The translations under genes were made by a program, and so were the position numbers. From assembly GCF_003334765.1 (NCBI RefSeq), contig NZ_QOWT01000054.1: a stretch of 14,936 nucleotides of DNA; one strand, 5' to 3'. The stretch is from Escherichia coli. GTDB lineage: Bacteria > Pseudomonadota > Gammaproteobacteria > Enterobacterales > Enterobacteriaceae. How positions within the stretch are numbered: the first letter of the stretch is position 1; each line of letters starts with the position of its first letter. Shown piece after piece: positions 13,371 to 13,799 of this stretch. The notes under the pieces were generated by a model. That model worked only from the letters and a program-made list of their open reading frames with translations. It had not been told where the DNA came from and searched no databases.

Positions 13371-13799
13371 ATGAATCCGTCTGATGCCATTGAGGCAATT
13401 GAAAAACCGCTCTCCTCCCTGCCTTACTCACTTTCCCGTCACATCCTGGAACATCTGCGCAAACTCACCAGTCACGAACCCGTGATTGGCATTATGGGTA
13501 AAAGCGGGGCCGGTAAATCTTCACTCTGTAATGCACTGTTTCAGGGGGAGGTCACACCGGTCAGTGATGTTCACGCCGGCACCCGGGAAGTGCAGCGCTT
13601 CCGTCTGAGTGGTCACGGTCACAGCATGGTTATCACTGACCTGCCCGGGGTGGGCGAGAGCCGGGACCCGGGAATGCATTTCCGTCGGGTTATCCGCAAC
13701 GCGGAAGGTCAGCGACGCTGGCGCTGCCGGAATTCTGAACCCGATGCCGGAAAGGTGCTTAATACGCGGCTCGCCAGTGACGGTCTTCTCAGACAATAA
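13371..13799 (+). pseudogene. Truncated YfjP/YkfA/YeeP-family GTPase (50S ribosome-binding GTPase-like)
   Basis: The ORF-track frame starts at 13332 inside the terminator; the likely start is ATG 13371-13373 ([12 protein letters not shown]...). G1/Walker [14 protein letters not shown] and G3 DLPGVG are present, but the frame stops after about 142 codons with no G4 (NKxD/TQADK-type) motif. Only about 100 bp separate the stop from the next gene, whereas family members are about 290 aa as I recall, so an internal deletion or frameshift is likely. Confidence 0.65.

Follow-up and report, generated by a model that had tools for sequence, protein, structure and literature searches.

A short GTPase ORF in an Escherichia coli CP4-44-like island is very probably the in-frame scar of a single 7,377-bp deletion into DUF905

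Introduction

The closest described counterpart of the locus analysed here is yeeP (b1999), the GTPase pseudogene of the CP4-44 cryptic prophage in Escherichia coli K-12, which belongs to the same family and the same type of island, is located just upstream of flu/agn43 and, like the open reading frame (ORF) described below, is a remnant left by a deletion and not by point mutation. The pseudogene is annotated over about codons 150–290, while its homology to the intact gene extends from about codon 108 to codon 290, starting at GTACC/GTGAC (gene nt about 321–326; here and below a slash marks the boundary) and running to the stop codon. In the literature yeeP appears mainly as a pseudogene integration site, and our search of publications on yeeP, ykfA, yfjP and CP4-44 turned up neither functional work on the GTPase nor any description of breakpoints.

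An intact member of the family, the YfjP/YkfA-type protein WP_001069724.1 of E. coli 55989 (290 aa, CDS at 14694–15566 of locus L003, annotated as 'GTPase family protein'), is an Era/Der-like GTPase which covers positions 2–111 of the Pfam MMR_HSR1 model and which, when aligned with Der and Era, has TQAD as its G4 motif (approximately residues 152–155, opposite NKLD of Der) and SAR as its G5 motif, continuing with a C-terminal region of about 100 residues. The next conserved gene downstream encodes DUF905 (YkfF; PF06006; NMR structure 2HJJ), which in 55989 is 77 aa long and occupies L003 22266–22499.

The 14,936-nt stretch of E. coli DNA analysed here in its entirety, referred to below as the window, contains an ORF of 142 codons made from parts of both of these genes. 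Residues 1–99 of the GTPase are the same in the window, in 55989 and in SK1144, with G1, the threonine of switch I and G3 among them, everything that follows in the intact protein being missing; residues 100–142 correspond to residues 35–77 of DUF905, whose first 34 residues and own start codon are gone, leaving that domain incomplete. The K-12 pseudogene is thus the complementary fragment, keeping G4, G5 and the C-terminus but not G1–G3, whereas the window keeps codons 1–99 fused to DUF905.

Results

Composition of the chimeric ORF

The features of the ORF and its neighbourhood are listed in Table 1. A sequence-only reading of this DNA had described a 142-codon gene with GKSGAGKS and DLPG motifs but no G4, and had placed it as a truncated member of the yeeP/yfjP/ykfA GTPase family; these observations were confirmed by tblastn and Pfam analysis. 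With the intact 290-aa GTPase of 55989 as the query, tblastn gave a match of E=1.5e-63 over residues 1–110, and the MMR_HSR1 model was recognised with E=2.4e-12 over residues 39–101 (model positions 2–67 of 113), model positions 68–113 having no counterpart in the chimera. The GTPase homology of the ORF is far above chance. Among the motifs that define Era/Der-like TRAFAC GTPases of the YfjP/YkfA/YeeP subgroup, G1 (GxxxxGK[ST]) is present as GKSGAGKS and G3 (DxxG) as DLPG; G4 ([NT][KQ]xD, the TQAD of the intact protein) is missing, the GTPase part stopping at residue 99, as are G5 (SA[KLR]), the C-terminal region and the full length of about 290 aa. No match to GTPase residues 111–290 was obtained in any frame of the window (tblastn).

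The gene had also been described as cut to about half its length, and while the truncation is real, the extent is greater: the GTPase contributes 99 of the 142 codons, or 34% of its 290-codon gene, and the other 43 are DUF905. The tail is recognised by the Pfam DUF905 model (PF06006) with E=5.7e-9 over residues 96–139 (model positions 25–68 of 70), and a complete domain of approximately 70 positions with its own start codon is not found, codons 1–34 having been deleted. Across the joint the protein reads ...GVGESRD/(15 residues not shown)...LLRQ, terminated by the stop codon of DUF905. None of the three proteins (chimera, intact GTPase and DUF905) reached the cut-off of a curated NCBIfam family, and at gathering thresholds Rfam gave no match in the window.

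Since both parent genes are in one reading frame at the joint, the product is an in-frame chimera, and its last 43 residues, stop codon and terminator, as well as the 99-nt spacer between the stop codon and the DUF932 start at 13899, are therefore all those of DUF905. The close approach of the ORF to DUF932, which had likewise been pointed out, is in this way inherited.

Table 1. Features of the window around the chimeric ORF, followed by the deletion joints mapped at nucleotide level to sites A and B of the GTPase gene
Feature	Position, or protein and locus	Strand	Remarks
Upstream 339-aa hypothetical gene, usual left neighbour of the GTPase gene	12242–13261	+	WP_001403577.1 in 55989; WP_001330680.1 in SK1144
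Terminator-like hairpin with T run after the 339-aa gene	13327–13356	+	Ends 15 nt before the ATG of the chimera
Chimeric ORF, 142 codons	13371–13799	+	ATG 13371, TAA 13799; GTPase codons 1–99, DUF905 codons 35–77 and stop codon
GTPase-derived segment, codons 1–99 of a 290-codon gene	13371–13667	+	Match to E. coli 55989
G1 / P-loop GKSGAGKS, residues 43–50	13497–13520	+	Sequence reading; within MMR_HSR1 match
G3 DLPG, residues 90–93	13638–13649	+	Sequence reading; aligned with D-x-x-G of Der (DTAG)
CGGGAC, surviving start of the left arm of the palindrome	13662–13667	+	Inverted repeat I1 and DNA fold
Deletion joint, GAC common to both parents	13665–13667		Inside 14-column imperfect repeat (GAC, GGGA and TGCA match); three-row alignments
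DUF905-derived segment, codons 35–77, native frame and native stop codon	13668–13799	+	Collinearity with 55989 and Pfam
Terminator-like hairpin with T run, native DUF905 downstream sequence	13821–13860	+	Stretch collinear with 55989
DUF932 gene, usual right neighbour of DUF905, intact, 272 aa	13899–14717	+	
Site A joint	Window		To DUF905
Site A joint	P0014 (L008)		To cbeA-cbtA spacer
Site A joint	P0036 (L009)		To radC codon 10
Site A joint	P0041 (L012)		To DNA downstream of DUF932
Site B joint	P0003 (L010)		To DUF905
Site B joint	P0012 (L013)		To DNA upstream of DUF5983
Site B joint	P0018 (L014)		To chromosomal gntP/uxuA; partner without counterpart in reference
Site B joint	P0033 (L015)		To radC
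Site B joint	P0004 (L016)		To a point inside agn43

The deletion and its joint

The complete genomes closest to the window are those of E. coli 55989 and 042. Positions 7663–13667 of the window correspond to 55989 L003 8986–14990 with 3 mismatches in 6,005 nt, and positions 13665–14936 are identical to L003 22365–23636 save for 15 clustered mismatches in DUF932; the distance between these flanks is 7,377 bp in 55989 and about 7.37 kb in 042. The window therefore differs from both by a deletion, of 7,377 bp relative to 55989, joining codon 99 of the GTPase gene in frame to codon 35 of DUF905. At the joint the GTPase parent reads ...GAGAGCCGGGAC/AGGGATGCA and the DUF905 parent reads ...CAGGATGAC/CCGGGAATGCA, the two agreeing in 11 of the 14 aligned columns of the repeat GAC(..)GGGA(.)TGCA, and the extension of gapped megablast matches as far as 13678 fits this imperfect repeat. 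Alignments with the parents revealed neither inserted bases nor an IS at the joint. The hallmarks of a microhomology-mediated (illegitimate) deletion, namely a shared GAC, collinear flanks and no scar of an IS or a site-specific recombinase, are all present, and judging by these alignments the joint is that of a short-repeat illegitimate deletion.

Judged by how 55989 is annotated in RefSeq and by alignment with K-12, the content lost comprises GTPase codons 100–290, a region homologous to isrC, agn43, a gene for a YeeR-like membrane protein, an IrmA-family gene and DUF905 codons 1–34. The YeeR-like protein is in 55989 an 838-aa membrane protein, which represents the full-length form of K-12 YeeR. 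Elsewhere in the window, no remnant of the intact GTPase, Ag43, the YeeR-like protein or IrmA was found in any frame (tblastn; best E 0.14–0.2).

The ancestral island would thus have resembled those of 55989 and 042, with the 339-aa hypothetical gene, the 290-aa GTPase gene, the isrC-like region, agn43 and the YeeR-like membrane protein gene followed by the IrmA-family gene, DUF905, DUF932, an antirestriction gene, radC, DUF987, cbeA and cbtA. A single illegitimate-recombination event acting through the short repeat would have taken out the 7,377 bp extending from just past GTPase codon 99 to just ahead of DUF905 codon 35.

To the right of the joint, the 15 differences between the window and 55989, L005 and L006 all fall within 231 nt (14187–14417) inside DUF932, and this patch is 100% identical to DUF932 paralogs of other E. 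coli genomes. It looks like either a gene-conversion tract from a paralogous island or a mix-up of paralogs in the assembly.

Occurrence of the chimeric allele

Identical 142-aa proteins are deposited at NCBI under CAM3801418.1 and HAI0796375.1, both with the name 'DUF905 domain-containing protein', which covers the tail alone, 70% of the chimera being a GTPase fragment. The same protein in the same context is present in two other E. coli draft assemblies, GCA_012773475.1 and GCA_965137835.1, in contigs of 46 and 20.6 kb that run through the joint. Both contigs are identical to window positions 3371–14936 save for the 15 DUF932 positions, which means that all four deletions of the window (the other three are described below) are common to them. 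The exact joint was found in 0 of 5,426 complete E. coli genomes (megablast, query 13250–13900), in which thousands of copies match up to approximately 13678 and then stop, and the 90%-identity cluster of the chimera consists of one member on two contigs among 15 billion proteins. On the evidence of these assemblies and searches, the chimera is a genuine allele, rare and of recent origin, belonging to one small lineage.

The gene family occupies a median of 4 places per genome. In a metagenomic sample of at least 120 copies carrying a 26-nt flank, of which 108 could be assessed, 101 (94%) encode 290 aa.

Other GTPase chimeras and a possible breakpoint hotspot

A protein search with the chimera as the query returned many E. 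coli ORFs in which the GTPase N-terminus is followed by another downstream island gene or by an unrelated tail. Deletion chimeras include P0003 (::DUF905), P0014 (::CbtA), P0036 and P0033 (::RadC), P0066 (::DUF932), P0069 (::CbeA), P0031 and P0093 (::antirestriction), together with a GTPase/autotransporter remnant in strain ETEC4073. These resemble the window in that the GTPase gene passes, after its 5' part, into a downstream island gene of the same orientation, but they differ in their right-hand partners and deletion sizes, and the exact joint of the window is confined to its own small lineage.

Left breakpoints mapped at the nucleotide level recur at two positions: site A, after gene nt 296/297, with four joints, and site B, after gene nt 325, with five left-end joints (Table 1). 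The left breakpoints of P0014, P0036 and P0041 are within 1 nt of that of the window, microhomology of 2–10 nt accompanies the site B joints for which a right-hand parent sequence was available for comparison, and K-12 yeeP is broken at site B from the other side (5' boundary at nt ~325). At the protein level, 12 of the 20 joints located at codon 98 or beyond fall at codons 98/99 or 107–109, a count from which IS insertions and frameshifts were left out. One of these 12, P0068 at codon 107, may mark the end of an IS2, given the appearance of its tail. The sample at both levels derives from one protein search with a longest match of 249 aa, and the events are taken to be independent.

Sites A and B flank the imperfect inverted repeat I1 at gene nt 292–326 (L003 14985–15019), a 35-nt imperfect palindrome with the sequence CGGGACAGGGATGCA-gagta-TGAAGCCCTGTACCG, at the feet of which both sites are located. 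The DNA here folds modestly (−15.3 kcal/mol, z = −1.86). A metagenome scan for site A joints (26-nt flank plus NNH) and a scan of IMG/VR for site B joints each gave 0 matches and lent recurrent breakage at these sites no independent support, and both scans had little power, since only about 3–6% of the sampled copies are disrupted.

We tentatively propose, with somewhat less than even confidence, that the GTPase gene of CP4-44/CP4-57-type islands may hold a structural deletion hotspot at which independent events in different E. coli lineages break at site A or site B. The ORF of the window would then be one product of a recurrent, site-directed process, for which candidates are a polymerase stalled at the hairpin that switches template, or cleavage of the hairpin, and through such a process these islands would lose agn43 and other cargo again and again.

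The same foreign tails were also seen at different GTPase codons, an example being CVFRSIRSRIG at codons 118, 131 and 160; proteins with recurring tails are P0015, P0032, P0034, P0035, P0042, P0045, P0054, P0026, P0082, P0098, P0115 and P0068. Recurring tails of this kind are a signature of IS insertion, so the GTPase gene is evidently a frequent IS target as well.

In the ETEC4073 remnant named above (L002 6097–6627), which is another independent one, GTPase codons 1–79 abut the C-terminal 100 codons of an autotransporter beta-barrel, and intact DUF905 and DUF932 genes follow. In K-12 CP4-44 (L007 12300–12312, the yeeR/yeeS boundary), a 3.6-kb deletion joins yeeR to radC/yeeS, having taken the IrmA-family gene, DUF905, DUF932 and the antirestriction gene, and the K-12 yeeR is a truncated form of the gene for the 838-aa membrane protein of 55989.

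Other deletions in the window

Compared with 55989 and 042, three additional clean deletions are present in the window, at 4422–4423, 6527 and 7663–7671, with overlaps of 1–9 nt and without any IS. They measure 829 bp, 3,223 bp and 28,058 bp, and the 28,058-bp deletion has taken the greater part of the Sci-1 type VI secretion cluster, from tssG past hcp. Four deletions in one island are unusual in a lineage that is otherwise few SNPs away from 55989. The 3,223-bp deletion creates a second in-frame chimera (561 aa, window 5326–7011, − strand) in which the N-terminal ~161 residues come from TssJ (SciN) and the C-terminal ~400 from a UvrD-like protein that carries the annotation '3'-5' exonuclease'; both draft assemblies have the chimera called as a single gene, and it matches the Pfam families T6SS-SciN and UvrD-helicase.

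Discussion

The ORF is very probably a deletion scar, a non-functional remnant produced by ordinary gene decay through a single 7,377-bp deletion. The sequence-only reading had instead taken it to fit an internal deletion or frameshift in the GTPase gene, citing K-12 yeeP as a parallel. The ORF is indeed short and without G4, and its GTPase match ends after residue 99, but the tail is DUF905 in its own frame, no coding sequence for the GTPase C-terminus is left in any frame, and the missing DNA spans four other genes; the downstream gene sequence that an internal lesion would have left in place was found neither by tblastn nor in the alignment of the joint. An internal lesion is therefore almost certainly the wrong explanation. 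The likeness to yeeP holds loosely, in that both are remnants of the same gene, and fails in detail, yeeP being the opposite remnant without G1–G3. Two ways in which the ORF might have been no truncation at all also fell away: homologs of naturally about 140 aa are contradicted by the 290 aa encoded by nearly all assessable metagenomic copies, the short database entries being contig-end partials, frameshifts, IS insertions and other deletion chimeras, and a C-terminus reached by programmed frameshifting is contradicted by the whole-window tblastn. The accompanying view that the element is decaying proved right, the island being CP4-44-like and having undergone three further deletions compared with its closest relatives.

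It could also be supposed that the joint is an assembly artefact, or that the short form is ancestral and the 55989 form arose by insertion. A family present at several places per genome offers repeats that can mislead assemblers; however, contigs of two other independent assemblies run through the same joint, and paths in a de Bruijn graph are not joinable by a 3-nt overlap. An insertion would have had to complete two truncated Pfam domains at once, which is implausible, and the predominance of 290-aa copies in the metagenomic sample also speaks against it. We regard both variants as highly improbable. Slightly less so, but still very unlikely, is that the chimera is a new gene with a function, in which a P-loop fragment fused to a DUF905 C-terminus is expressed and kept by selection. 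The fusion is in frame and has retained native start and stop codons and the terminator, three assemblies carry an identical protein, and P0003 is a second GTPase::DUF905 chimera that is in frame, with its joint elsewhere. Against this, the protein is a cluster of one in the very large collection searched, too little time has passed since the event for selection to have left a detectable mark, half of the G-domain core is missing along with G4 and G5, and out-of-frame joints at the same sites are equally common (P0041, P0012, P0018 and P0004), leaving selection for in-frame fusions unsupported. Of the three deletions found that join the GTPase gene to DUF905, two preserve the frame (P0001 and P0003) and one does not (P0043), a share compatible with chance.

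As a deletion scar, the chimera may still be transcribed and translated, given its GTPase start codon and its DUF905 stop codon and terminator. Of the G domain it contains beta1, the P-loop, switch I and G3 only, without the guanine-specificity motifs G4 and G5 and without the 140-residue C-terminal part, and of DUF905 it contains the C-terminal 43 of 77 residues. With a partial G domain and a partial DUF905, the product should neither bind GTP specifically nor fold as either parent, and the chimera is in all likelihood a non-functional remnant. No disabling mutation has accumulated inside the ORF, nor would any be expected given the evidently recent date of the deletion, with 3 SNPs per 6 kb compared with 55989. 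What matters biologically is probably that Ag43, an autotransporter adhesin, was lost together with its neighbours.

Conclusions

The deletion allele is in itself of little import, being recent and rare, though it corrects the database name to a GTPase::DUF905 chimera. The lineage of the window has lost Ag43 and, by the separate 28-kb deletion, the Sci-1 type VI secretion system, losses which bear on aggregation, biofilm formation and inter-bacterial competition. The possible hotspot, although of modest interest, matters somewhat more than the allele: if true, it would explain why yeeP-like GTPase remnants are so common, among them the K-12 pseudogene that often serves as a neutral site for integration, and would provide a natural, sequence-defined model for deletions with one fixed end.
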